The notes under the pieces were generated by a model that saw only the letters and a list, made by a program, of their open reading frames with translations, was not told the origin of the DNA and ran no database searches. Made by a program: the position numbers and the translations under genes. Positions 2,252 to 15,694 of a stretch of DNA of 64,000 nucleotides are shown here, piece after piece (within the stretch, counting starts at the first letter, position 1; each line of letters starts with the position of its first letter). The stretch is from a virus. The DNA is taken from the IMG/VR virus record IMGVR_UViG_3300042514_001858, positions 64,001 through 128,000 of that record; one strand, written 5' to 3'.

Positions 2252-2747
2252 TTGTATTTTCTTTAATTAGTTTATCAATGTTAAGTTCTTCGATTGGTTC
2301 AGTAATCAGTATAGTATCCAATTTAAGTGTGACAGAATATTTGTTTTTGCAGTGGTCACATTCAACCACAAATTCTTCCATTGGTTTAAAAATACCATCG
2401 AACATGTTGTTACCACAATTACAGGGGAATTTAACAGATGCTTCGTCCAATAGTTCCTCATAATTTTTAATAACTTCTTCTTGCTCAGTGATTACTGTAT
2501 CAGATTCTTGAAGCATATTCTCCAGATTCGTAACACGCTCATCAACTTTTTTCTTTCCTAAAAGTTCTTCTAATTCTTCCACTCTTTTATCATTGCTCTT
2601 TCTGTTTTGTAGCAAGTAATAACCCCACCCGTAACCTAATCCAGCTAATACAAATGATTTAGAGAATTTCTCCAAATTATCTGATATCCCATAAGCAATG
2701 GCACTTGAAGCCACTACTCCCAATAATATTTGTTTTCCGTATTTCAT
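2232..2747 (-). CDS. Membrane protein with coiled coil and C-terminal Zn ribbon
   Basis: Two N-terminal hydrophobic segments; CNC...CDHC. Confidence 0.65.
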   Translation of the reverse strand: MKYGKQILLGVVASSAIAYGISDNLEKFSKSFVLAGLGYGWGYYLLQNRKSNDKRVEELEELLGKKKVDERVTNLENMLQESDTVITEQEEVIKNYEELLDEASVKFPCNCGNNMFDGIFKPMEEFVVECDHCKNKYSVTLKLDTILITEPIEELNIDKLIKENTNDKNRN

Positions 2748-3502
2748 ATTTGTTTTGCTTTTAAAATGATATCTGCTGCAATGTCTGGATCAAATTTGAA
2801 AGAGATCTTAGATGACTCCATGATTCCTTCCAACCTGCCAAATTCTTCGTTTACCATTTGTTCAAATCGCTCGCATGTGTAGTATTGTGGGCTAGTTTTT
2901 AAATCCATCAATTTCTCCCAATACTTCTCATCAAATTCCTTGACATTTACCATGTATTTACCAGTGGTGAAGAACTCAATACCGACTTTACACAATCGAA
3001 GAATCTGAACAAAGTTTTTTGGACTGAACCCATAGGTTTCTACCGCTTTTTTCCTTTTACCGCCTAACTGACCGCTTCTTTGCCCAGTAGCCAATCGAAT
3101 TTCGCTGAATACATAACCCTTTAGTGAATTTTTAAGGGTATTAGTGTCGATTAGATCGTAAGCATGGGACACGATCTCATCAAAGATTGGATGTTTGTAT
3201 GTAAATGCTGTGTCGGGAGCGAATAATATCTCCAATACCTGAGTATTACTCTTTCTCAATAATTTTAAGTATCGAGTGATCTCATAATAAGTAGAGTCGA
3301 TGTCATCAGTCTGGACAATCGATTCGATATTATCCAAATTGGCTAAATATCGCTTATTTTTAGCAACAAATAGACCACGATAATCAACATCGGACTCTGG
3401 TGTGTTCAATCCATACAAAGTAGAACCACCGATCAATTGACAGATCAGCTTTCCTTCGCAATTTTTATATGCTTCGTGATTTTCAATACTATTATCTTTC
3501 AT
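2744..3502 (-). CDS. Pol-beta superfamily nucleotidyltransferase (RlaP/Nuc-transf type)
   Basis: GGSTLYGLNTPESDVDYRG motif; KNFVQILRL C-terminal motif. Confidence 0.85.
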   Translation of the reverse strand: MKDNSIENHEAYKNCEGKLICQLIGGSTLYGLNTPESDVDYRGLFVAKNKRYLANLDNIESIVQTDDIDSTYYEITRYLKLLRKSNTQVLEILFAPDTAFTYKHPIFDEIVSHAYDLIDTNTLKNSLKGYVFSEIRLATGQRSGQLGGKRKKAVETYGFSPKNFVQILRLCKVGIEFFTTGKYMVNVKEFDEKYWEKLMDLKTSPQYYTCERFEQMVNEEFGRLEGIMESSKISFKFDPDIAADIILKAKQI

Positions 3503-3527
3503 TTTCTCAATCCTCTATAATTTGATT

Positions 3528-3932
3528 TCATGTCCACATGTATCCTCTATATTTTACAATAGTGTTCATCAATTCTGTATCTTTATTCAAAAACGAATCT
3601 TCCAGTGTAATAAATTCATCAATATTAGTCCCATCCCATTCATCAACCTGTTTTTTCAAAGCAGGACGCTCATTTTTCAGATAAAGATACACATCGTTAA
3701 GTTCTTTTTGTCTGAGTTTGATGGCATCCACAGTATCCTGTCTAACATGTCCCTTTTGCAACTCTTCAGAAAAGTCATAGCAAGTGTCATTAAGCCCGTC
3801 TTCTTTTTCCACATAGTGAATCAAGGAATCAAAAAGAACAATTTCGATGATTGAGTCTTTATCTATCCATTCACCTTTTAGATTGTCAGTTAGCCACTTC
3901 TGTTGGTTTTTATTTTTATTTTTCTTGCTCAT
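3528..3932 (-). CDS. Hypothetical protein
   Basis: Probable start MSKKNK at 3932; ends KYRGYMWT. Confidence 0.6.
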   Translation of the reverse strand: MSKKNKNKNQQKWLTDNLKGEWIDKDSIIEIVLFDSLIHYVEKEDGLNDTCYDFSEELQKGHVRQDTVDAIKLRQKELNDVYLYLKNERPALKKQVDEWDGTNIDEFITLEDSFLNKDTELMNTIVKYRGYMWT

Positions 3933-3933
3933 A

Positions 3934-4125
3934 TTAATTAAAATTCTCCCTACAATTAAACAACATATCAATTTTTTCTAAATTTTCTCGCATTTGTTCT
4001 TCCGACAAAGAAATATGTCTTGCGATGTAAATTCGATTACCAATATCTCGCAAAATCTCTAATTGATCGAGAGGTTTGTATTCTGTAATAAATTTTAAAT
4101 TTTGTTTATCGGGTATTTCAAACAT
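3934..4125 (-). CDS. Hypothetical protein
   Basis: TATAAT 6 nt upstream of ATG. Confidence 0.5.
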   Translation of the reverse strand: MFEIPDKQNLKFITEYKPLDQLEILRDIGNRIYIARHISLSEEQMRENLEKIDMLFNCRENFN

Positions 4126-4146
4126 GCCCCGATTATACTCTAGTTT

Positions 4147-4500
4147 TTAATTATTACCAATAGTATAATTCGACAATATCTTATCACCATTTTTCATCAA
4201 ATACATCATGATCTTCTCCAGATTACCTTTCAGCTTAATTAGATCACCATTTTTTTGATATTTTTCCATTTTAATGATATTTTCCAATTTGGAAGACGCT
4301 TGAAATGCACTGTCTTGGATATTAGCTAAATATTGAGGCAGTCCTTCAAATTCATATGGGAGAGTGTCTGGTGATTGCGCCATTTTCTCATCCGTTTTAT
4401 ATTTTCTCATCTGTTCAGAAGGATTTAGAGGATTTTTGAAATCAAGATCAATAGCACCAGAGGCAATTGCAGTAGAATAAGGAGAATTTGAAGCAGCCAT
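4147..4500 (-). CDS. Hypothetical late protein
   Basis: TAAATA at 4514-4509 upstream. Confidence 0.6.
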   Translation of the reverse strand: MAASNSPYSTAIASGAIDLDFKNPLNPSEQMRKYKTDEKMAQSPDTLPYEFEGLPQYLANIQDSAFQASSKLENIIKMEKYQKNGDLIKLKGNLEKIMMYLMKNGDKILSNYTIGNN

Positions 4501-4536
4501 ACATAGATTATTTAATCATTTAAGCTAAATAATAAT

Positions 4537-4947
4537 ATGCGAAACAAATTTCAAGCCAAATTCCTTAAATTACTACAAGAAGCACCTGAACTCGATTTCG
4601 ATCCTGCTGCTGAAGAAGCTGCTGCCGCTGGACAATTAGATGATGGAATTAATCTTGATGAGTATGGTGTGGATACAGAAGCAGATCCAAATGTTATGAA
4701 TAGTATGGATGATGGTGGAGATTCTCAAAATCAGCAAATGATTTCCACTGTTGATACGTGGAAAGCAAATCTAGAAAAAATCGATAGTTATCTGAGAGAT
4801 ACTGTTTTGGCATCCATTTCACAATCACGTAATAACACCATTATTGGAGATTTGACGAGTGAGTTAGGATCAATCGAAAGAATTCTAAATAATATTAGTG
4901 AATTCGCTAATGCGATTGACATGTCTGTTGCTAAAAAACGCGAATAA
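4537..4947 (+). CDS. Acidic late protein, possible prohead core/internal head protein
   Basis: TAAATA-N5-ATG; FLKLLQE N-terminus. Confidence 0.55.
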   Translation: MRNKFQAKFLKLLQEAPELDFDPAAEEAAAAGQLDDGINLDEYGVDTEADPNVMNSMDDGGDSQNQQMISTVDTWKANLEKIDSYLRDTVLASISQSRNNTIIGDLTSELGSIERILNNISEFANAIDMSVAKKRE

Positions 4948-4955
4948 ATAATTGA

Positions 4956-5975
4956 TCATTTGATCATTTTCATCTTCACTGTTGCTGCTAACCCTTTATA
5001 GGTGTTCTTCAGAATCAAATCTGTTGGGTATTCATCCATTTCATAAGCCATACATACGGCATTTATGTCTTTGAATCGTTTCCCATCGTATTCAGACCAT
5101 ATAAAGACTTTCTCCCCCATCTCAATGAGCTTTAAAGTCTTTTCTCGTGCAGTCTTGTCAATCCATTGACTATCAAGCACCCAAATTCTCTCAAAGAATT
5201 TTAAACCATCCATTTGTTCTTGTTGACTAAAAGTAAACAATTGTTCACCTTTAGTAATACCTCCAATACCTAATCCGTTTTTTACGAAACAAGCATCTAA
5301 CGGTCCTTCAATGATAAACACCTTATCTAAGTCAGACGATACTCGCTCGATACCGAAGACACTTTTATCTCCACCGTCTTTTGACAAGTAACTTGGAGAT
5401 TCATCATCCAAAATCCTTCTGGATTGGTAATAGATTATCTTACCTGACTCGTCTTTGAATGGTATCACTAGACGATTATTATGCACACGGTCTTTCAACG
5501 ACAAATAGAATGCATCAGGACGGTTTACAGCCTTATTCAATCGTCTCTCCTTGATATAATCCAAGGCTTTTTTGACAATCTTATTATTCTTGTAGTAATC
5601 TGTCTGATTTTTATCAGATAAATTAATACTATCCACTGGTAAAGACGATGTAGTCTTTGGTTTTTCTTCTTTTTCTTCTAAATCCATCACATTTATCATG
5701 CCGAAATTACCCTTTTCAATCTCATCGACTATCTGATTGAATGACATTCCCGAAACTTCCTTGATCCATTTATAGGGTTTAGATGACCATCCACAATTAT
5801 GGCAAAAAATGTTATCATTTTCTGGAATGTAGAAGCATCTCTTCTTATGACCCCAGCTTTTTCCCTCCCTACAAATAGGGCAACAACAATTATACGTGTT
5901 CCCATGAGTATTATGACTTACTTTATACCCGAATTCGTAAAATTTGGATACTACGTAATCACTTGGAACTTCCAC
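4956..5975 (-). CDS. gp61: DNA primase (T4 gp61-like)
   Basis: Zn finger CPIC...CHNC; TOPRIM IIEGPLD; probable GTG start at 5975 (ORF track extends to 6206). Confidence 0.9.
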   Translation of the reverse strand: MEVPSDYVVSKFYEFGYKVSHNTHGNTYNCCCPICREGKSWGHKKRCFYIPENDNIFCHNCGWSSKPYKWIKEVSGMSFNQIVDEIEKGNFGMINVMDLEEKEEKPKTTSSLPVDSINLSDKNQTDYYKNNKIVKKALDYIKERRLNKAVNRPDAFYLSLKDRVHNNRLVIPFKDESGKIIYYQSRRILDDESPSYLSKDGGDKSVFGIERVSSDLDKVFIIEGPLDACFVKNGLGIGGITKGEQLFTFSQQEQMDGLKFFERIWVLDSQWIDKTAREKTLKLIEMGEKVFIWSEYDGKRFKDINAVCMAYEMDEYPTDLILKNTYKGLAATVKMKMIK

Positions 5976-9391: not shown

Positions 9392-10309
9392 TTAGTCATC
9401 TAATCCAGCAAGAAGATCGTCAATTTCATCATCGTCATCTTCAACTACTTTCTTTTTTGGGGTCGATGTCGCTTTCGACTTTACATGAACCATGGGAATG
9501 TCATCTTCATCTTCATCTTCATCGATTACTACTTCTTTTTTGGCTTGTTTTAGAGGCTTGCGCTCTTCTTTCTCTGCACCAACGAAGAAGTGTTCGTTCA
9601 GAACTTCTTGAAGCTCATCGTAAGTCTTCACGGGATAAACTGCTTCAAGATCATGAAGAGACTCACAAATCTTATCAATCTCTTCCTCATCCAAAACAGT
9701 CTTGGACTTGGTAGTGATGAACGAAGATTCGAATGTGGTGTATTCACCTTTCTTCTCAGCAACGATCTTGAAATCATGTCCTTTAGTCGGGTCGAAAATG
9801 TCCCAACCAAGTTCATCGGAACGCTCCCCTTCGGTGGCATCATCAATGATTTTCTTAATTTGTGGACCCATACGAAGAATCCTCGTAGTGCCATTGTTTT
9901 CTGGTTTAGCAGGATCATTGATCACGTAAACATTCACAAGCCACTGCTCTTTCTGAGCAATTTCTGCTTTGTATTCTTTGTTCTCAGCTTTAGGATTAGC
10001 TTCTTTCCAGCTTTTCCAAAGTTTCCAACGAAGTTCAGAGATTGGATCACGATCACCAAAAGTTTGAAGACCAATGTAGCTCATATAAGAACCTGTTGCT
10101 TTGCTATTCCAACCATTCACCCAATGATGGAAGAGACTCTTTTCAGGATTCTCCACATTAGGGATCAGACGCAGAGTGTATGTATTGCCAGCAGGAAAAC
10201 TCATAATATTTGAGAATTGTCCACCAGATGATTCATTACCCTTGTTTAAAGCTGCTTTGATCGAATCGAACATTGCAGCACCGAATTTGCTTTTTGTTTT
10301 TGTTGCCAT
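9392..10309 (-). CDS. gp32: Single-stranded DNA-binding protein
   Basis: LRLIP, NVYVINDP..PENNG, IFDP..G.DF, acidic tail IDDLLAGLDD. Confidence 0.92.
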   Translation of the reverse strand: MATKTKSKFGAAMFDSIKAALNKGNESSGGQFSNIMSFPAGNTYTLRLIPNVENPEKSLFHHWVNGWNSKATGSYMSYIGLQTFGDRDPISELRWKLWKSWKEANPKAENKEYKAEIAQKEQWLVNVYVINDPAKPENNGTTRILRMGPQIKKIIDDATEGERSDELGWDIFDPTKGHDFKIVAEKKGEYTTFESSFITTKSKTVLDEEEIDKICESLHDLEAVYPVKTYDELQEVLNEHFFVGAEKEERKPLKQAKKEVVIDEDEDEDDIPMVHVKSKATSTPKKKVVEDDDDEIDDLLAGLDD

Positions 10310-10321
10310 ATTGTTGTTTAG

Positions 10322-10960
10322 TTATTGTAGTTGATTTGTTATTTTGTCAATTGCTTTTTTTGAGAAATCCCGCATCTTCCTGCTCAGATAGAATTTGTTT
10401 TTCGTTTTTTGAAACGTAATCCAAAAGTCTGAGAAAATAAAATCCAGAATCCGATTCTCTACCTCGATTTTTGTAACACCTAAAGCATGAAGCGCATACA
10501 TATTTATATGATGGTTCTTCAGATGGTCAATCATGTTCGGTAGAGCGTCTTCAATATATAATGGATATTCTTTCAAAGTCAAGTTTTTTTCTTTGCAGAA
10601 ATTTTTGACAAATTTAAGACTATCCACCAATCGATTGAGAGAACTTTCCGAATCAGGATCATCCATCTCAATTTTCTTCATGTATTGAGAGTATGCCTTC
10701 TTTGCTTTGGAAGTCAAGTAAAAATCCAAATCAAAATAGTCATCATCCTCAAAAATTACGTAAGGGGCAGCGAAATAATCATCAATTTTAATATTTTGAT
10801 AACTATTGAAAAATCTTTCCAGAGAAGCGAGACGATCTAGCTTGGTTTGATCCATGTCGGAGAAATCCTTACGAATCCGAAATGGTTTGTCACGCATCTT
10901 GCGGGAGATGGCGAGATGAGAATTGTAAATTCTCTTTTGAAAGTCTGTCATATCAATCAT
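10322..10960 (-). CDS. Hypothetical helical protein, possibly gp59-like helicase loader
   Basis: Size and position directly upstream of gp32 only. Confidence 0.4.
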   Translation of the reverse strand: MIDMTDFQKRIYNSHLAISRKMRDKPFRIRKDFSDMDQTKLDRLASLERFFNSYQNIKIDDYFAAPYVIFEDDDYFDLDFYLTSKAKKAYSQYMKKIEMDDPDSESSLNRLVDSLKFVKNFCKEKNLTLKEYPLYIEDALPNMIDHLKNHHINMYALHALGVTKIEVENRILDFIFSDFWITFQKTKNKFYLSRKMRDFSKKAIDKITNQLQ

Positions 10961-11179
10961 TTAATATCTATCATTATAACTCATGAACGCATCCATGCAA
11001 GCGTCTTCTGTCATATCACGAATATCCCATTCAACAGATTCCAACCATCTTTTATTAAAATTGATACCATCAACATGTTCAGATAGCCATAAAATATAAG
11101 ATGGTTCAATATCAGCAATCTCATCAAAAGATTTACCTTTATATTTCCCAAAATTAATTATATCCTCTGGTTTTTTCAT
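10961..11179 (-). CDS. Small FGKYKG-motif protein (DUF3820/ExoX C-terminal-like)
   Basis: INFGKYKGKSFDEI...PSYILWL. Confidence 0.7.
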   Translation of the reverse strand: MKKPEDIINFGKYKGKSFDEIADIEPSYILWLSEHVDGINFNKRWLESVEWDIRDMTEDACMDAFMSYNDRY

Positions 11180-11460
11180 TTCTTTCTCTTTTTCTGCTCT
11201 GAATTAATGTATTTCGTGATGAACTTACTACGTGAAATAGTAGGATCATAATCTAGAAACACTTTAACAAGTTCTTGGTCAGAGTCAAGAGATAAAATGG
11301 TTTTCAAAATTGTTTTTAGCCTTTCCTCTTGGAGAGTAGTCACGAAAACATTCTGAATGGATAATTTTTTTCCTTTAAGATGATTTATAAAGGAACAATA
11401 GCATAGAAAGAGGTGATTTGTTTCCTCTTCCACAATTTCTGATGATGGATCAAAGCTCAT
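11176..11460 (-). CDS. Hypothetical protein
   Basis: Coupled overlaps with both neighbours. Confidence 0.6.
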   Translation of the reverse strand: MSFDPSSEIVEEETNHLFLCYCSFINHLKGKKLSIQNVFVTTLQEERLKTILKTILSLDSDQELVKVFLDYDPTISRSKFITKYINSEQKKRKK

Positions 11461-12320
11461 AATTCTGTAAGTGTTTCGCTGAATTTCAAAAATTCTTTGG
11501 TGATTTTACCTCCTGATGCCCATTCGCCGCCACCACCGTCACCACCGTCACACAGATTAGCAGCCATTTTAGCAATGTCAACCTCCGATCCTTTACATTT
11601 TCTAAAAGAAACGAATTTTGTATCAGGGTTCATTACAATTACAGCGTCTCCTTTATAATTTTCCATAATGGAATGGCTCAATTCATTCACGGAGAACTTA
11701 GAAATCGTGGAAATGACCTTAAATCCTTCCCATTCTCCTGTGAATAGTTGAATTTGCTCCAATTCTTTTTCTAATTCCTTGAAAAAACCTTCAGCAAGCT
11801 TAACTTCTGTGGTAGTGAACCCGTCAAACCCGTTCCAGAAGCGATTTACAAAATTAATAAAGCGATTTCCACCAGATTTACGATAAAGAGCATTGAGATA
11901 CTTGGTTTCTTCGTGTTTTAGATCATATGAATTGTAATCATCGACGTATAGGAAGAATTTTTTCAAATCTTTCGTAAATTCCACCTTTTCTTTGAATTTT
12001 TTATACAACATCTTGGTGCAAGATGAACATTCTTCCTGAATCATGGTTGAATCCCATGTTTTGAAGTCTTCGGGACGGTCTGAAACGAACACCACACGAT
12101 GATCGTCAATCTTTTTGATAAGATTTTGATCTAGAACCATGCCGACTACGAAGATTTTATCATAATCTTCTGCATTTTCTTTAGCCCATGGTAGATATTG
12201 TTCTTCAAACTTACCAAAAAAACAATGACGATACTCAAAATTCTTAAATAAATTACCTAAAAGAACTGTAGAACCAATACCATCCAAATCTGAGTTGACC
12301 CAAGCAAAGATACGTTGCAT
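11457..12320 (-). CDS. Degenerate DHH/DHHA1-family protein
   Basis: SDLDG motif I, VDDYNSY, VSFR...GGG; DHH replaced by DRP and GGGH by GGGE; start MQRIFAW at 12320 behind promoter. Confidence 0.7.
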   Translation of the reverse strand: MQRIFAWVNSDLDGIGSTVLLGNLFKNFEYRHCFFGKFEEQYLPWAKENAEDYDKIFVVGMVLDQNLIKKIDDHRVVFVSDRPEDFKTWDSTMIQEECSSCTKMLYKKFKEKVEFTKDLKKFFLYVDDYNSYDLKHEETKYLNALYRKSGGNRFINFVNRFWNGFDGFTTTEVKLAEGFFKELEKELEQIQLFTGEWEGFKVISTISKFSVNELSHSIMENYKGDAVIVMNPDTKFVSFRKCKGSEVDIAKMAANLCDGGDGGGGEWASGGKITKEFLKFSETLTEL

Positions 12321-12324
12321 GTCA

Positions 12325-12352
12325 TAATTACTCGGATTTAAAGAATTGTCAA
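12325..12352 (-). promoter_or_regulatory. Promoter TTGACA-N16-TAATTA for DHH gene
   Basis: Direct inspection; conserved in duplicate copy at 13341-13368. Confidence 0.65.
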
Positions 12353-12360
12353 TCATAATA

Positions 12361-12449
12361 ACACAACATGTCGCTCCATCCAACGGCTCAAAGTCGTCTG
12401 TTTCGTATTCAGAGTCTTACGTTCGCCGTGGATGAGCTAGACGTTCGGC
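12361..12449 (+). mobile_element. attC: Integron attC site 1 (89 bp)
   Basis: R'' ACACAAC, 5 nt, L'' GCTCCATC, CAACGGC...GCCGTG, L' GATGAGC, 5 nt, R' GTTCGGC; unpaired C and A give bottom-strand extrahelical G and T. Confidence 0.9.
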
Positions 12450-12997
12450 AAAATAATCCCCCACCCCCCTCCTCCCGACGACAAAGAGAAACAACAAACA
12501 TTATGACAGATAATACAAAGAAAGGATATTTTGATGAAAATCTCACTTTTGATGGGATACAGAAGACAATCGATGATTTAGTAACAAATTACCCAAATCA
12601 TATCGGCGTTATTACCGCAATTGGTAAGTTGGGTAGCTTAATGTCAATTTTACACGATGACAACAAAGAACAAAACCGACTAACAAAAATCCAGAATAGG
12701 CGAGTGGAGATTTTATCTTGGGTTGTCGGTGTTTGCACCTTGATTACGACATTTGCAACCATCATGAGTATCTGTAAGTGAATTACGGGCAAACCAATCC
12801 ATAATCTCTTTAACTTTTCTATCCTGTTCACGATTGAATGATTCTTGATATTCTTTTTCAGTGTCTCGTTTGTCAGCATTTGTAATAAATCTCCACATCC
12901 TAGAAAAAAATGAAGAAGCCGAACAAGACGCTCCATCCAACGGCGAAAACGTCTTTGATTGTTTCGGACTCTGTTTGCGCCGTGGATGAGCTAGACG
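12444..12997 (+). mobile_element. Integron gene cassette (554 bp)
   Basis: Begins TTCGGC; its own attC starts GCCGAAC, complementary to GTTCGGC; ends at G|TT. Confidence 0.85.
12503..12781 (+). CDS. Cassette-borne small membrane protein (92 aa)
   Basis: Canonical cassette orientation; coiled segment then C-terminal TM ILSWVVGVCTLITTFATIMSI. Confidence 0.65.
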   Translation: MTDNTKKGYFDENLTFDGIQKTIDDLVTNYPNHIGVITAIGKLGSLMSILHDDNKEQNRLTKIQNRRVEILSWVVGVCTLITTFATIMSICK

Positions 12998-13027
12998 TTG
13001 TGTATTATTTTTATTTTTATTTTTCAT
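12713..13027 (-). CDS. ORF starting outside the cassette and reading through attC2 into it
   Basis: Promoter TTGACT-N16-TACAAT 9 nt upstream; RLAHPRR...PLDGASCS is attC-encoded. Confidence 0.5.
   Translation of the reverse strand: MKNKNKNNTQRLAHPRRKQSPKQSKTFSPLDGASCSASSFFSRMWRFITNADKRDTEKEYQESFNREQDRKVKEIMDWFARNSLTDTHDGCKCRNQGANTDNPR
12918..13003 (+). mobile_element. attC: Integron attC site 2 (86 bp)
   Basis: R'' GCCGAAC-AAGAC-L'' GCTCCATC-CAACGGCG...CGCCGTG-L' GATGAGC-TAGAC-R' GTTGTGT. Confidence 0.9.
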
Positions 13028-13036
13028 AAGGTCTGT

Positions 13037-13064
13037 ATTGTATACTAGTTTTTAAGAAAGTCAA
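13037..13064 (-). promoter_or_regulatory. Sigma70-type promoter pointing into the attC array
   Basis: TTGACT-N16-TACAAT. Confidence 0.7.
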
Positions 13065-13381
13065 CCATTTGATAATTTTTGCAATAAGTCCAATTCATCA
13101 TTGTCCATAATTTCTTCCTCATCAATCTTTTTGATAAGATTTTGATCTAGAACCATGCCGACGATAAAGATTTTATCATAATCCTCTGCGTTTTCTTTAG
13201 CCCATGGTAGATATTGCTCTTCAAACTTACCAAAAAAACAATGACGATACTCAAAATTTTTAAATATGTTCCCCAAAAGAATTGTTGATCCAATTCCATC
13301 CAAATCGCTATTGACCCATGCAAAAATTCGCTGCATGTTATAATTACCAATTTCTATAAAATTGTCAATAGGTGATTCCAT
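13061..13381 (-). pseudogene. Chimeric remnant: DHH-gene 5' end fused to gp41 3' end
   Basis: 13122-13368 closely matches 12106-12352; 13104-13124 identical to 14252-14272; tail EEEIMDNDELDLLQKLS vs gp41 EEEIMDNNELSLLEKLS. Confidence 0.85.
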
Positions 13382-13411
13382 ATAAGAATCTTAGAATAGG
13401 ATTAAGAGAAA

Positions 13412-14203
13412 TCAAATAACTCTTGGTTCATTTTTAGATTTAATTACATAGCTACTCATAACCTTGTTATATAAATCAGGTTGAACTTTTTTCAACCTAT
13501 CAAAACCTATCATAGATTTATTATACATCAAATATGTTCTTATTTTTGAAAATGATTCTTTGCGTTCAACACATTCAGCATCGTAAATATATTTAATATT
13601 TCTCTCCAATCTTGTGAATCCTTTATCACCATCCTCATAACCAAAATTTAAATACCACATAATGTTATCAGGATTTTTTGGAGTTGCAGTGGTAAAAAAC
13701 CCAATTTTAAATTTGGTGTTTTCTTTTGGTTCTTGGACTCTGTTTTGTAGGCTATTAAATCCGCGTTGCCCCACTTGTGTCGAACTAGGATTATGTCCAA
13801 CCGAATATACGGAATATGCATATGCTGGATTGGATGAAAAATAGACTGAATTTCCTATAGCTTTGGAATCTTCACCCTTGGAAAAGGGGTCGGGATTTTT
13901 ATGTCCCCTATACACCAAAGAACCATCTTTAGGTAAAGAGTCGAACCCCTCTTTCAAATAAAATCCGTAATATTTCATCACCTGCTCCAGATATTCGTTT
14001 TCATCGTTACGAATATCTTGGGTAATACTTCCACTTCCCATAGTTTGTTTATACTGAACTGCATCATCACGATTTTTTTTATAAGATGCAACATCTTTAA
14101 TGGAAAAGCTATCATCTTTTCGATCAAACATAGTTCCAAAAGGTCTATTACCTTCCCTTTTTTTTGTGACAAATTCTTCAAAAAATATTTTAAACGATAC
14201 CAT
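13412..14203 (-). CDS. Late protein with ADP-ribosyltransferase-like motifs
   Basis: LVYRG, VYFSSNPAYA..Y, distal AECV; TAAATA-N5-ATG; MVSFKIFFEE N-terminus. Confidence 0.5.
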   Translation of the reverse strand: MVSFKIFFEEFVTKKREGNRPFGTMFDRKDDSFSIKDVASYKKNRDDAVQYKQTMGSGSITQDIRNDENEYLEQVMKYYGFYLKEGFDSLPKDGSLVYRGHKNPDPFSKGEDSKAIGNSVYFSSNPAYAYSVYSVGHNPSSTQVGQRGFNSLQNRVQEPKENTKFKIGFFTTATPKNPDNIMWYLNFGYEDGDKGFTRLERNIKYIYDAECVERKESFSKIRTYLMYNKSMIGFDRLKKVQPDLYNKVMSSYVIKSKNEPRVI

Positions 14204-14211
14204 TCCATTAT

Positions 14212-15525
14212 TTAATCACTCAACTTTTCAAGAAGGCTAAGTTCATTATTATCCATAATTTCTTCCTCATCATCTGCCTGATATATAGAAAGTGTGGAAT
14301 AATTAATTCTCATGGCTTGTGTCATTCCTCTCGGTCCGAACCTATTTTTCATCATTCCCAGACGAATTACTGCCATTTCTTGGTCTTCTTCGTTCTGGAA
14401 GATAGATACAATCACATCAGCAGTCATAACAATAGCCAAAGACTCAGCAACACCTGACATATCAGGGTTATTTTGTCCAACAGCAGATCTATTCAACTGA
14501 CAAGCTGAAATAATAGGGCATTTATAGACATAAGACAATGCTCTGACCTGTTCGCAGATGTTTTTACCCTTTTCATAGCTGTTACTACCAGCAGCAGTCA
14601 TCAAAGTAAGGTAATCAAGCACAATAGCATCAATTCTGATACCAGAATCTTTCATTTTCTTGATAAAAGCTCCCAATTGCTTAGGTGTAATCGTAGATGG
14701 GGGGAATTCTTTGATATAAATGCGCCCATCAGTGTTCTTATGCTCTTGTTCAAGGGCATGTCGAAGCGTTGGGACACAATTACGGAACTCCTTCATGGGA
14801 ATCTTCGTCACATTCGAAGCAATTCTCTTAGCATAGAGCGTTTCCGACATCTCCAGAGTCACAACAAGCACATGTTTACCTTGGGATGCCATGTTTGCCG
14901 CCACATTACCAAGGAAAATGCTCTTTCCAATGTTAGATTGACCCGCAAACACATACAATGCCTTACCAGCTTCTTGAAATCCACCGTCCAATGCCTCATC
15001 TAACCATGCCCATTTGGAAGAAATAGTGGTTTCATCACTCAAAATGTCATCAATGACCTTTTCAACATCACCATAAAGCTCAATTCCTTTATCAACATTG
15101 AGATTGATACCAGCAATCTTCTCAAATTTCTCCACGATCTTGGCGGTATCGGCTTCTCCTTCCGATATTTCTTCTGCTGACTCCAAAATGGAGTGATACA
15201 TGCCCCGTTCCTTGAGGAATCTTTCTGTATTCTCATACAATTCATCCTGATTGTGATTGGAATCGATCTCTTTGAATGATTCAATTAACTTTTTGAAGTT
15301 GGTTTTGAGTTCATCTGTCGTGAGATATGTCTTCACCTCTGTGAATGTGGGAAGAGATTGTCGTTTCTCGTAGAAATCTGCAACAATCTCAAAATATTTC
15401 GCAATATTTTTATCCGTGAAATACTTGGGTTGGACGTAATCAGCAATGGATGCCAGATAAGCACCATTCGTGATCGCGTTCTTCACAAGAACCTTTTCAA
15501 AATAATCAAAATCTATTTCAGACAT
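14212..15525 (-). CDS. gp41: Replicative DnaB-like helicase
   Basis: GQSNIGKS, TLEMSE, IKEFPP, LDYL, QLNR, KNRFG. Confidence 0.95.
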   Translation of the reverse strand: MSEIDFDYFEKVLVKNAITNGAYLASIADYVQPKYFTDKNIAKYFEIVADFYEKRQSLPTFTEVKTYLTTDELKTNFKKLIESFKEIDSNHNQDELYENTERFLKERGMYHSILESAEEISEGEADTAKIVEKFEKIAGINLNVDKGIELYGDVEKVIDDILSDETTISSKWAWLDEALDGGFQEAGKALYVFAGQSNIGKSIFLGNVAANMASQGKHVLVVTLEMSETLYAKRIASNVTKIPMKEFRNCVPTLRHALEQEHKNTDGRIYIKEFPPSTITPKQLGAFIKKMKDSGIRIDAIVLDYLTLMTAAGSNSYEKGKNICEQVRALSYVYKCPIISACQLNRSAVGQNNPDMSGVAESLAIVMTADVIVSIFQNEEDQEMAVIRLGMMKNRFGPRGMTQAMRINYSTLSIYQADDEEEIMDNNELSLLEKLSD

Positions 15526-15694
15526 CTATAATTTTACTTTTTTGTACTAATTCTTTAGTATCACCTTCTTGCATTTGACGAATTTTACCACTGTAATCGA
15601 TTTTATCAGGTTGCCCAGTGTAATCGGGAGCATCAATCATCGTCATTCGCCACTCTTCACCTTTAATAGTAACTATTTCTTCTTTATTGTCCAT
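15518..15694 (-). CDS. Small hypothetical protein
   Basis: Probable start MDNKEE at 15694. Confidence 0.45.
   Translation of the reverse strand: MDNKEEIVTIKGEEWRMTMIDAPDYTGQPDKIDYSGKIRQMQEGDTKELVQKSKIIDV

Follow-up and report, generated by a model that had tools for sequence, protein, structure and literature searches.

attC sites flanking a small gene cassette beside a promoter in a lake-water phage genome, and possible routes of cassette exchange

Integrons are regarded as bacterial devices. To our knowledge, it is only recently that clusters of attC sites have been described in phages; those reports come from isolated genomes and offer no evidence of turnover. Integrons have been little studied in Verrucomicrobiota. 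The window analysed here, a stretch of 64,000 nt (positions 64,001 to 128,000 of virus record IMGVR_UViG_3300042514_001858), belongs to a lake-water phage of roughly 200 kb and contains, at about 12354-13064, a 0.7-kb module in which two candidate attC sites enclose one cassette. A preliminary description proposed that, with the cassette removed, the whole phage genome is formally one giant cassette, able to enter a host integron and to leave it with a host cassette. The locus raises the questions of whether the sites are attC sites, where their family belongs and how the cassette came to lie between them.

The attC pair, its cassette and its phage flanks

A pattern search, a covariance model and a sequence-free geometry scan agreed on two attC copies in the 154,167-nt virus record, 557 nt apart (Table 1); the geometry scan returned these 2 sites compared with 3 matches summed over 20 shuffled genomes. 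In each site the R box is 7 nt long, the 5-nt spacer is unpaired and the R''/L'' arm carries two surplus bases. These fall at positions 16/17 and 22/23, counted along the R'' arm, and their bottom-strand letters, G and T, match the extrahelical G16 and T23 described for attCaadA7 (PMC5027507). The two repeats share a 22-nt arm that is identical (12424-12445 and 12978-12999) and a 28-nt arm that is 86% identical; the spacers are unpaired (AAGAC or ATGTC versus TAGAC) and the terminal loops variable. Compared with the box consensus RYYYAAC/GTTRRRY given in PMC5027507, both sites have the AAC and GTT ends and fit partly in the four variable bases, the strict RYYYAAC not being matched by R'' (ACACAAC is RYRYAAC and GCCGAAC is RYYRAAC). 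Single-strand folding energies did not stand out (bottom-strand z of -1.17 for attC1 and -2.30 for attC2), and since these scores are modest the attC call rests on geometry and family instead. An Rfam search at E<=1 of the module and two host loci gave no match. The inverted repeat with AAC/GTT ends, the unpaired features and the array/cassette rule were all found, and by family and geometry we regard attC1 and attC2 as genuine integron attC sites. The pair has the make-up of a CALIN, namely two close attC sites with no intI nearby (PF00589 was absent from the 154-kb record, which is 75% complete). It is not a complete integron (intI, attI, Pc), no tyrosine recombinase having been detected in the record or in five related phage records and the adjacent promoter being of phage type and opposite in direction.

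Table 1. Features of the module and its flanks, in window coordinates
Feature	Position	Strand	Details
DHH-family phosphoesterase gene, full copy	11457..12356	-	Pfam DHH, E=2e-4; PHROG 26954 'DHH phosphoesterase'
Sigma-70-like promoter-like site for DHH	12324..12352	-	TTGACA-17-AATTAT; native phage sequence adjoining attC1
attC1	12361..12449	+	Model R1 73.5 bits, E 8e-26; geometry scan 13/13 arm pairs; R'' 12361-12367 (ACACAAC), 5-nt spacer 12368-12372, L'' 12373-12387, loop 12388-12424, L' 12425-12437, spacer 12438-12442, R' 12443-12449 (GTTCGGC); crossover G|TT 12443|12444
Gene cassette	12444..12997	+	554 nt; starts TTCGGC, ends with the G of attC2 R'
ORF92	12503..12781	+	Small protein with hydrophobic C-terminal stretch; canonical cassette orientation
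ORF104	12713..13027	-	Initiates at the ATG of the phage promoter, which lies beyond the cassette; runs through attC2 and 68 codons into the cassette
attC2	12918..13003	+	Model R1 77.6 bits, E 2e-27; geometry scan 13/13; R'' 12918-12924 (GCCGAAC), spacer 12925-12929, L'' 12930-12944, loop 12945-12978, L' 12979-12991, spacer 12992-12996, R' 12997-13003 (GTTGTGT); crossover 12997|12998
Phage promoter and start codon	13004..13064	-	TTGACT 13064-13059, consensus AAAAACTAGTATACAAT 13053-13037, ATG 13027-13025
Truncated second DHH N-terminus copy fused to helicase-type acidic tail	13061..13381	-	Outside the cassette

The first six bases of the cassette complement its own R'' (GCCGAAC), the window cassette follows the cassette rule at 7/7 positions, and its GC content (0.29-0.43) is that of the phage background. 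Five homologues of ORF92 were found (92-99 aa, 67-90% identity, full length), and an ORF92 homologue, P0007, comes from a 3.27-Mb contig; neither it nor ORF104 or orf263 had a match in Pfam or PHROGs, and a related-locus search with ORF92 returned four already known contigs and nothing else. The ORF92 family model found nothing in 802 Verrucomicrobiota genomes (401 from the phylum and 401 from the order to which genome G002 belongs), a result that, the model having no positive control, means just that the family went undetected in the genomes searched. The homologues of ORF104 are of two kinds: P0012 and P0013 keep the C-terminal body, and P0014 and P0015 keep the first 39 residues with different bodies. 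P0012 and P0014 are on a 28.9-kb JGI contig, and P0015 is on ENA contigs. The attC2-type sequence is joined on its R'' side to at least three bodies (window, P0014 and P0015), and the body of the window's ORF104 is also found behind another attC type (P0012).

Followed along the phage genes, the module runs from the phage promoter and start codon through attC2, the cassette and attC1 to the DHH gene. As had been described, attC1 has no cassette gene upstream: it adjoins the DHH start (ATG 12356 or, as in relatives, ATG 12320) and the sigma-70-like site. The R' box of attC2 (GTTGTGT), also as described, runs on into phage DNA, which is the phage promoter. The DHH gene has relatives at 41 loci (55-99% identity), and a TTGACAA... 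stretch homologous to its promoter-like site also occurs at the relatives' cassette-free junctions. The promoter beside attC2 has a sigma-70-like score of 10/12, and the consensus TTAAAAACTAG.ATACAAT followed by ATG occurs about 17 times on the promoter's strand of the virus record. Its direction opposes the canonical cassette direction, and flanks homologous to the promoter region adjoin other attC types in relatives. Beyond it lies the truncated second DHH copy, comprising a 251-nt repeat that is 87% identical and a 31-nt repeat that is 94% identical, with a helicase-type tail 100% identical to the helicase tail of four cassette-bearing contigs. Judged from these repeats, this segment is a joint in a mosaic genome made by recombination inside DHH. 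Nothing in the 'phages' collection matched 10300-15600 by blastn.

The attC family in Verrucomicrobiota and module turnover in related phages

Host sites were sought with the L'' 15-mer and TGAGCT in a set of genomes in which every species was represented once. At least 124 loci were obtained, nearly all in Verrucomicrobiota, and among the matches listed there were 106 distinct sites with variable xxxxAAC and GTTxxxx ends. The host arrays consist of same-strand sites spaced 0.5-2 kb apart, with six sites each at L103, L137 and L109, and hold many sequence types that pass the geometry scan; that scan found nine sites at L137, where the cassette rule was obeyed in 8/8 adjacent pairs. The model TIGR02249 scored above its 265-bit cut-off in three of five array-bearing genomes compared with none of 14 controls. 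In contig G002:C8, the integrase gene occupies 11973-12914 and the attC sites come after it, the first at 11366 and the last at 925. The attC family of the window forms cassette arrays beside integron integrase genes in Verrucomicrobiota. Going by this family alone, the host of the phage would be a member of that phylum.

Both phage sites are identical to the host consensus at 34/34 box positions, an identity partly built in because the host sites were retrieved with the window's own L'' 15-mer. The loops match it at 14/37 (attC1) and 17/37 (attC2) positions (38-46%; Fisher p = 2e-9 and 8e-8), and have a GC content of 0.41 compared with 0.55 in hosts; that of the phage is about 0.33, far under the 0.55-0.6 of the host arrays. 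Loops so AT-shifted and so dissimilar to the host consensus indicate that this is not a recent host cassette.

The module recurs in four other IMG/VR contigs from other samples. In related phages five attC types are found fused, at one and the same G|TT nucleotide, to the phage side of the joint (TTGTGT, leader and promoter), and the attC geometry is kept across these five sequence types. The relatives L090 and L091 have flanks that are 93-97% identical and different cassettes, with the left breakpoint at G|TT; further cassettes occur in L066 and L257, and L231 has a three-site array. One intact attC with self-complementary R boxes (ACACAAC...GTTGTGT) is present in a relative (L091/L239/L241). 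The 35-nt leader occurs twice in L091, and in both L090 and L231 the conserved flank extends about 27 nt beyond the type-3 site. Two complete relatives have direct terminal repeats, which are compatible with circular or concatemeric replication. Of 30 relatives, 26 lack attC sites of every type at the helicase-DHH junction, which therefore offers no example of a single-attC precursor.

The R boxes of the window are complementary in a reciprocal manner at 7/7 positions, the outer pair being ACACAAC/GTTGTGT and the inner pair GTTCGGC/GCCGAAC. This pattern is the scar expected of a cassette entering a single attC by G|TT crossover, and fits a circular cassette GCCGAAC...G|TTCGGC recombined with one resident attC ACACAAC...G|TTGTGT. 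In host arrays of the same attC family a 7/7 match was found in 20/42 adjacent-site pairs, 2/55 same-site pairs and 181/2970 unrelated pairs, the last of which means that the outer match is expected by chance in about 6% of cases. Outer boxes matching at 7/7 positions are seen in two modules that differ in attC type and also at the lone site of L091. The inner pair is the same in nearly all phage cassettes, which suggests a conserved repeat more than ends particular to each cassette. Complementarity had also been said to extend into the AT-rich flanks. This pairing proved weak: it requires a 1-nt bulge and is absent in the second module of this design, that of relative L090, and we therefore take it as chance in AT-rich DNA. 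Two other signatures of insertion were considered and set aside. Because the 5-nt motif TTGAC is present at either end of the module, a target duplication or microhomology came into question, but the case is weak: in the four sister contigs one side reads TTGAT, and the motif coincides in part with the helicase stop codon and a -35 box. IntI insertion at a secondary GTT of the cassette-free junction was rejected by inference, as the strand that bears the sole GTT there would place the cassette the other way round.

How the cassette may have entered

Two genuine flanking attC sites make the phage formally readable as one giant cassette, and with the cassette removed the 154-kb record would indeed keep one attC with matching R''/R' boxes. 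That much of the preliminary claim stands; it is restated topology, however, not evidence of genome integration, of which there was no sign. The caution given with it, that direct insertion of a cassette circle yields the same product, is correct. Junctions were searched for with the phage side of the joint, which gave 14 viral loci (12 relevant, 2 chance) and 13 metagenome loci (5 relevant, 8 chance). The host-phage junctions at G|TT that had been suggested as a check were found at none of the relevant loci. The attC adjoining the phage side scored 27-64 bits in these loci and 74.9 bits in the four near-identical X-type contigs among them (attC2 of the window, 77.6), compared with 81-116 bits for pattern-matched host sites. 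At least half of the sampled words of the phage were present in 18 lake metagenome and virome runs. Neither a joint across 12444-12997 (cassette skipped) nor a circle joint was present in the contigs of four lake runs, in which rare forms are dropped, and no alternative partner for attC1 was seen. Loop 26-mers specific to attC1 and attC2 were confined to the four other contigs known to hold the module. Some contigs of the lake runs share the conserved arms alone and are thus indistinguishable from host arrays; their loose ends are at 12906 and 12912 in run X11 and at 12423 and 12914 in run X17.

We consider a phage-borne cassette platform, lacking an integrase of its own and served by the host IntI, to be the best reading, with about an even chance of being right. 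The lineage would retain attC as a docking site; during infection the host IntI would recombine the folded bottom strands of the phage and cassette attC sites, and its action would insert, remove or swap cassettes. The adjoining phage promoter may transcribe across the site, giving fusion proteins of the ORF104 type and probably DHH expression. The module at the helicase-DHH junction most likely came as a block from another phage genome, given that the relatives have no single-attC stage there. A more specific version is offered tentatively: promoter and start codon would be set exactly at the attC G|TT crossover, so that a docked cassette is transcribed and translated through attC as an N-terminal fusion, and cassettes would be traded among co-infecting phages and perhaps with Verrucomicrobial integrons, a transient attC x attC fusion with a host array being one way of entry. 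Against the platform reading, no recombination intermediate (cassette-free joint, circle joint or other attC1 partner) was seen. The joints of the attC2-type sequence to several bodies on its R'' side are, moreover, not G|TT products unless many cassettes share a near-identical attC. Also unfavourable to it are the near-uniform inner R boxes, the deviation of R'' from the strict consensus, the partly built-in box identity, the opposing direction of the promoter and the wide GC gap between the phage and the arrays of its presumed host.

Homologous recombination yields such joints easily, and shuffling of this kind, like that of the promoter-early stem-loop (PeSL) cassettes of T4-type phages, is a serious rival that we find possible but somewhat doubtful. 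It holds that no integrase acts: the attC-like hairpins would be host repeats captured long ago that now serve as regulatory stem-loops beside promoters, and cassettes would move by phage homologous recombination across promoter-leader-hairpin units. The leader and the attC2-coded 39 residues on three bodies, the one body behind two attC types, the doubled leader of L091 and the conserved flanks reaching past the sites all speak for it. The module also lies between transcription units and carries a genuine phage promoter, the helicase-DHH junction is free of it in most relatives with no single-site stage, and the window genome is already a mosaic through recombination inside DHH; the PeSL precedent itself has mini-circles and a stated analogy to integrons (PMC2839356). 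A terminator or homology patch, however, needs none of the canonical attC geometry, with its bulge positions, that is kept across five unrelated types, and in the window the boxes are conserved while the loops drift. Nor does shuffling sit well with the recurrence of the outer 7/7 match in two modules and the single L091 site, given the chance level, or with 2 hairpins in 154 kb beside about 17 promoters, which is unlike the dense PeSL clusters.

By the route of the preliminary description, a one-attC phage genome entered a host integron as a giant cassette and left via the next attC with a host cassette. This would yield exactly the R-box pattern seen. In its favour are also the single intact self-complementary attC of one relative, the terminal repeats of the complete relatives, the presence of host-type attC contigs in lake runs that contain the phage (loose ends at 12423 and 12945 in run X17), and the integration of whole replicons via one attC in a suicide-plasmid assay (PMC9892861). 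We nevertheless consider it improbable. The 12 viral and 5 metagenome loci gave no host-phage junction, the attC adjoining the phage side scores below host sites, the cassette has the GC of the phage background, both loops are AT-shifted and dissimilar to the host consensus, ORF92 was not found in the 802 Verrucomicrobiota genomes, and PF00589 had no match in the phage's own record or in five related phage records, two of them complete. Integration of the genome into a host integron is thus left unsupported, with no host-phage junction, cassette-free joint or tyrosine recombinase found. The same is true of the specialised transduction of cassettes that had been drawn from it, there being, in the limited data, no integrase, no host-phage junction and no host-like cargo. 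An assembly chimera, with host attC reads mis-joined into the phage contig, is hardly credible. The conserved-arm 31-mers are indeed common to host sites in the same samples, but the same structure is present in the four other IMG/VR contigs from other samples, the loops are phage-specific, and single Logan contigs span the module in three of four lake runs from different studies (12213-13124 with 0 differences, 12229-13151 with 1 and 11976-13124 with 17).

Comparison with known integrons and phage cassettes

In the natural lake population the same phage joint is found with different attC types and cassettes, with a G|TT scar and with a promoter and start codon at the crossover. If the host IntI acts on replicating phage DNA, virulent phages would gain site-specific sampling of accessory genes, and cassettes would gain a viral route between Verrucomicrobiota cells. 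A locus with defined sites also makes the formation of a cointegrate between a one-attC phage genome and a host array directly testable.

The module resembles the sedentary chromosomal integron arrays of Verrucomicrobiota in attC sequence family, geometry and cassette rule. Unlike these, it lies in a phage without intI or recognisable attI, comprises one cassette only, and has AT-shifted loops, cargo of phage composition and an adjacent promoter that opposes the cassette direction.

The PeSL cassettes, which are reportedly also the subject of work by Comeau et al. in 2014, share with the module the coupling of promoter and hairpin and the replacement of cassettes; a terminator scan did not flag the hairpins here. 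As mobile regulatory cassettes of T4-type phages (Arbiol et al. 2010, PMC2839356), they likewise have a phage promoter and stem-loop flanking small accessory ORFs that are inserted, deleted or replaced between close relatives, and their excision as small circles is described as possible. Their stem-loops are described there as terminators, shuffled by homologous recombination and dense in hyperplastic regions, whereas those of the window are attC sites with extrahelical bases and AAC/GTT boxes common to host integrons, two in 154 kb.

As in the attC x attI suicide-plasmid assay (PMC9892861), a circle with one attC would be the substrate and its ends would be flanked by hybrid sites. The substrate of that assay, however, is a single-stranded plasmid of a few kb conjugated in the laboratory, compared with a phage genome of about 200 kb here.

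The closest precedent is the report of CALINs in temperate and virulent phage genomes by Qi et al. 2023 (PMC9892861), in which five of six attC sites of virulent phages recombined with attI1 under IntI1 and phage carriage of cassettes between bacteria was already proposed. Its main text contains none of the terms 'entire phage', 'whole phage' or 'single attC'. The module is like those CALINs in having at least two attC sites and a cassette in a phage without an integron integrase. It differs from them, as far as they are described in that text, in that its sites belong to a defined Verrucomicrobial array family, bear the reciprocal R-box scar of insertion and adjoin a phage promoter and start codon, and in that one phage joint is found with five attC types and different cassettes in natural relatives.

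attC geometry and a Verrucomicrobiota integron family

The cassette at 12444-12997 lies between two repeats, which share an identical 22-nt arm (12424-12445 and 12978-12999) and a second arm of 28 nt with 86% identity. An exact pattern search, a covariance model and a sequence-free geometry scan each found these repeats to be the sole copies in the source record, an IMG/VR virus of 154,167 nt with completeness rated at 75%, of which the window is bases 64001-128000; the geometry scan returned two sites in the record compared with three matches summed over 20 shuffled genomes. No family matching the attC repeat was found in Rfam. The R boxes are reciprocal, with the outer pair (attC1 R'' and attC2 R', whose complementarity the preliminary description had noted) and the inner pair (attC1 R' and attC2 R'') each complementary at 7/7 positions. 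The further claim that complementarity extends into the AT-rich flanks did not hold up: it depends on a one-base bulge and is missing from a second, identically designed module, and it is therefore treated as chance. The R''/L'' arm carries two extra bases, at positions 16/17 and 22/23, which on the bottom strand are G and T. The sites thereby resemble attCaadA7, which in the account of Nivina et al. 2016 (PMC5027507) has extrahelical G16 and T23, an unpaired central spacer and a variable loop.

Features of the module and its surroundings in window coordinates
Feature	Coordinates	Strand	Details
gp32-like single-strand DNA-binding protein	9392-10309	-
DHH-family protein	11457-12356	-
attC1	12361-12449	+	R'' ACACAAC, 5-nt spacer, 15-nt L'', 37-nt loop, 13-nt L', 5-nt spacer, R' GTTCGGC
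attC2	12918-13003	+	arms as attC1, 34-nt loop, R'' GCCGAAC, R' GTTGTGT
ORF104	12713-13027	-	small ORF through attC2
Truncated second DHH N-terminus	13061-13381
DnaB-like helicase	14212-15525	-
Repeat pair in mosaic region 13061-14203	12103-12353 / 13119-13369
Repeat pair in mosaic region 13061-14203	13094-13124 / 14242-14272
Phage promoter-like consensus examples	2884-2900; 4132-4148; 13037-13053	-

The L'' 15-mer followed after a gap by TGAGCT matched at least 124 loci in a scan of 185,579 species, each represented by a single genome; among the matches listed, nearly all were Verrucomicrobiota MAGs, and the 106 distinct sites among them had a strongly conserved core and variable ends (xxxxAAC and GTTxxxx). 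The arms of both window sites were identical to the host consensus at 34/34 positions, an agreement that partly follows from the retrieval of the host sites with the window's own 15-mer. The loops are AT-shifted and matched the consensus at 14/37 and 17/37 positions, compared with an average identity of 88% among host loops. A covariance model trained on 72 host sites detected same-strand arrays in the bacterial loci L103 (six sites in 4 kb), L137 (six) and L109 (six), and the TIGR02249 integron-integrase model scored above its 265-bit cut-off in three of five array-bearing genomes versus none of 14 controls. In the Verrucomicrobiota genome G002, the integrase gene on contig 8 (11973-12914) is followed by attC sites that run on the same strand from 11366 to 925, and contig 6 has an integrase at a distance of 1.9 kb from a site of divergent orientation. 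Among the 42 adjacent pairs in host arrays, 20 had an R' that perfectly complemented the R'' of the following site (controls: 2/55 for both ends of one site and 181/2970 for unrelated pairs), and in L137 this cassette rule held in 8/8 pairs once the geometry scan had added sites missed by the model. Because of this host family, its arrays with integrases, the cassette rule and the geometry, both window sites are classed from sequence as attC and together as a CALIN.

Several other features of the family were observed. Complete Verrucomicrobial integron structure was seen at L258 (G002:C8:8500-15000) and L109, where intI points the same way as the cassette array 3' of it and is not divergent from that array. 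Two recurrent conserved left flanks stand beside L'' instead of the usual R'' (one set in L114, L153, L185 and L193, the other in L125, L141, L173, L199 and L214), and these may be attI-side or array-boundary elements; one contains a short GC hairpin, and the copy in L114 is 1.9 kb from an intI. A 57-kb "viral" contig (L007/L043) that shares its sample series with the phage contigs carries three attC sites at 2449-4973, of which one scores 105 bits and has a host-consensus loop. Its GC content is 0.62-0.65 on one side, and it may be a piece of a bacterial or proviral genome that holds an integron array.

The helicase-DHH junction and cassette turnover

The module is surrounded by replication genes, all on the minus strand. 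Relatives reach lengths of 198-207 kb and have direct terminal repeats, and 18 lake-water metagenome runs contain at least half of the sampled words from 11900-13500. A query with the DHH protein gave 41 related loci, 30 of which extend over both the end of the helicase gene and the start of DHH. Four of the 30, belonging to one near-identical phage type, had the order helicase, promoter, attC2, cassette, attC1, DHH. The remaining 26 had no attC at this junction by covariance model or geometry scan, nor was a single-attC precursor found there; in 11 of them the helicase stop is less than 35 nt from the DHH start and thus leaves no space for a site. Relative to the closest cassette-free junction (L072, L073 and L093), the inserted block runs from approximately 12354 to 13060, extending 57 nt past attC2.

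The genome itself is a mosaic. A second phage type (L066 and L067) was the source of the window helicase, of orf263, which is present only in that type, and of the truncated DHH N-terminus, the second-type segment being joined onto the helicase tail of the cassette-bearing type. The truncated copy is 87% identical over 251 nt and is fused with a helicase-type acidic tail. Both types co-occur in the same lake runs (loose contig ends at 13120 and 13124), and the arrangement suggests that they were joined by illegitimate or short-homology recombination.

In related phages, the TTGTGT-leader-promoter was joined at one identical nucleotide to five attC sequence types, all of which passed the geometry scan: the window type, a window variant (L236 and L240), type 2 (L090, L066 and L257), type 3 (L091, L239 and L241) and type 4 (L231). 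L090 has a full second module at a different genome position, downstream of the SSB region, with the same outer (ACACAAC/GTTGTGT) and inner (GTTCGGC/GCCGAAC) boxes as the window and with different arms and cassette. The flanks of L091 and L092 are 93-97% identical to those of L090 and the cassette is different, the divergence beginning directly after the common GTT of the left site's R' box, that is, at G|TT. The left site of L091, the sole intact site there, has mutually complementary R'' and R', making L091 a natural phage example with one matched attC. Further cassettes were found behind the type 2 sites of L066 and L257, and L231 has three sites and two cassettes. The array locus of L231 (2509-4803 of a 9,755-nt IMG/VR contig) also holds a 388-aa ORF of higher GC, and a tRNA-like T-arm occurs in the stretch immediately before the last attC.

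The phage promoter and reading frames through attC

The preliminary description was right that no cassette gene lies upstream of attC1, which lies directly against the start of DHH and a promoter-like TTGACA-17-AATTAT site, and that the R' of attC2 continues into phage DNA, where a phage promoter and an ATG stand to the right of the site. These 57 nt contain TTAAAAACTAG.ATACAAT followed by the ATG, with a sigma-70-type score of 10 of 12. Approximately 17 copies of TTAAAAACTAG.ATACAAT occur on the same (minus) strand of the record, and since each stands 6-9 nt before an ATG, leaderless or near-leaderless transcripts are suggested.

ORF104 starts at the ATG at 13027, crosses attC2 and continues for 68 codons. 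Across four different cassettes, leader ORFs run uninterrupted for 87-110 codons, versus just 16 codons for the one entering a cassette-less site. Among the database proteins, P0012 and P0013 retain the C-terminal body of ORF104, and P0014 and P0015 retain its first 39 residues (the leader and attC2-coded part) followed by other bodies. This small-ORF family through attC consists of a leader (MKNK..TQR), an attC-coded segment and unrelated C-terminal bodies. On the opposite strand of the cassette, ORF92 belongs to a real family, with five homologues of equal length and 67-90% identity. One member of its homologue cluster, P0007 (99 aa), is recorded on a 3.27-Mb contig, placing the family also in a cellular-size replicon.

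Possible routes of cassette exchange and known systems

The analysis established genuine attC sites of the host integron family, an R-box scar, a recurrent phage joint and cassette turnover, and no phage integrase was detected. The locus is a phage-borne attC cassette platform of the Verrucomicrobial type with natural cassette turnover. We give about an even chance to host IntI acting on this platform. The phage would retain attC as a docking site, at which host IntI, working on replicating phage DNA whose bottom strands have folded, would insert or exchange cassettes; the phage promoter at the crossover point would transcribe across attC to give the fusion ORFs and would restore DHH expression. 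The whole module at the helicase-DHH junction was probably acquired in one piece from another phage. IntI action is favoured chiefly by the bulge geometry kept in five sequence types, the contrast between conserved arms and diverged loops, and the repeated 7/7 outer match, and the same three points argue against captured hairpins having been shuffled purely by homologous, PeSL-like recombination. That route, which draws mainly on the R''-side joints in P0012, P0014 and P0015 and on the likeness of the inner boxes, is a tentative alternative to IntI action.

The preliminary description had proposed that the whole phage is formally a giant cassette which could enter and leave a host integron and so transduce cassettes. 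The formalism is correct; integration lacks support from the junction scans, recombinase searches and cassette composition. No host-phage junction was found in the 12 relevant viral and five relevant metagenome loci containing the phage side of the joint, the latter having a GC content of 0.37-0.44 on both sides; the remaining two viral and eight metagenome matches had no attC beside them. The attC beside the joint scored 27-64 bits with the host-trained model versus 81-116 for pattern-matched host sites; attC2 of the window scored 77.6 and its equivalent 74.9 in the four near-identical sister contigs, themselves counted with the relevant viral loci. Only these four contigs contained the 26-mers specific to the attC1 and attC2 loops. 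A joint across the cassette was absent from the contigs of four lake runs, a weak result because contigs conceal rare forms. The cassette body has a phage-like GC content of 0.29-0.43, ORF92 was not found in the 802 Verrucomicrobiota genomes searched, and PF00589 had no match in the record or in five relatives (two complete). Cointegration and exit through a host integron is thus improbable. The module was intact in contigs of three of the four lake runs and in pieces in the fourth; an assembly artefact is scarcely credible, and the small remainder falls to something else.

Among the papers listed by full-text searches on phage-genome attC, PeSL and Verrucomicrobial integrons, no title or abstract opening described this attC family or the fusion of a phage promoter with the crossover point of an attC. 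Qi et al. 2023 (PMC9892861) reported 17 CALINs in phages, virulent ones included, found IntI1-dependent recombination with attI1 for five of the six phage attC sites assayed, and proposed phages as cassette carriers; its main text does not use the terms "entire phage", "whole phage" or "single attC". In their assay a whole plasmid integrates via one attC, which is a laboratory form of the giant cassette. The T4-type phage promoter/stem-loop cassettes of Arbiol et al. 2010 (PMC2839356), which shuffle ORFs and form mini-circles, were compared with integrons by those authors.
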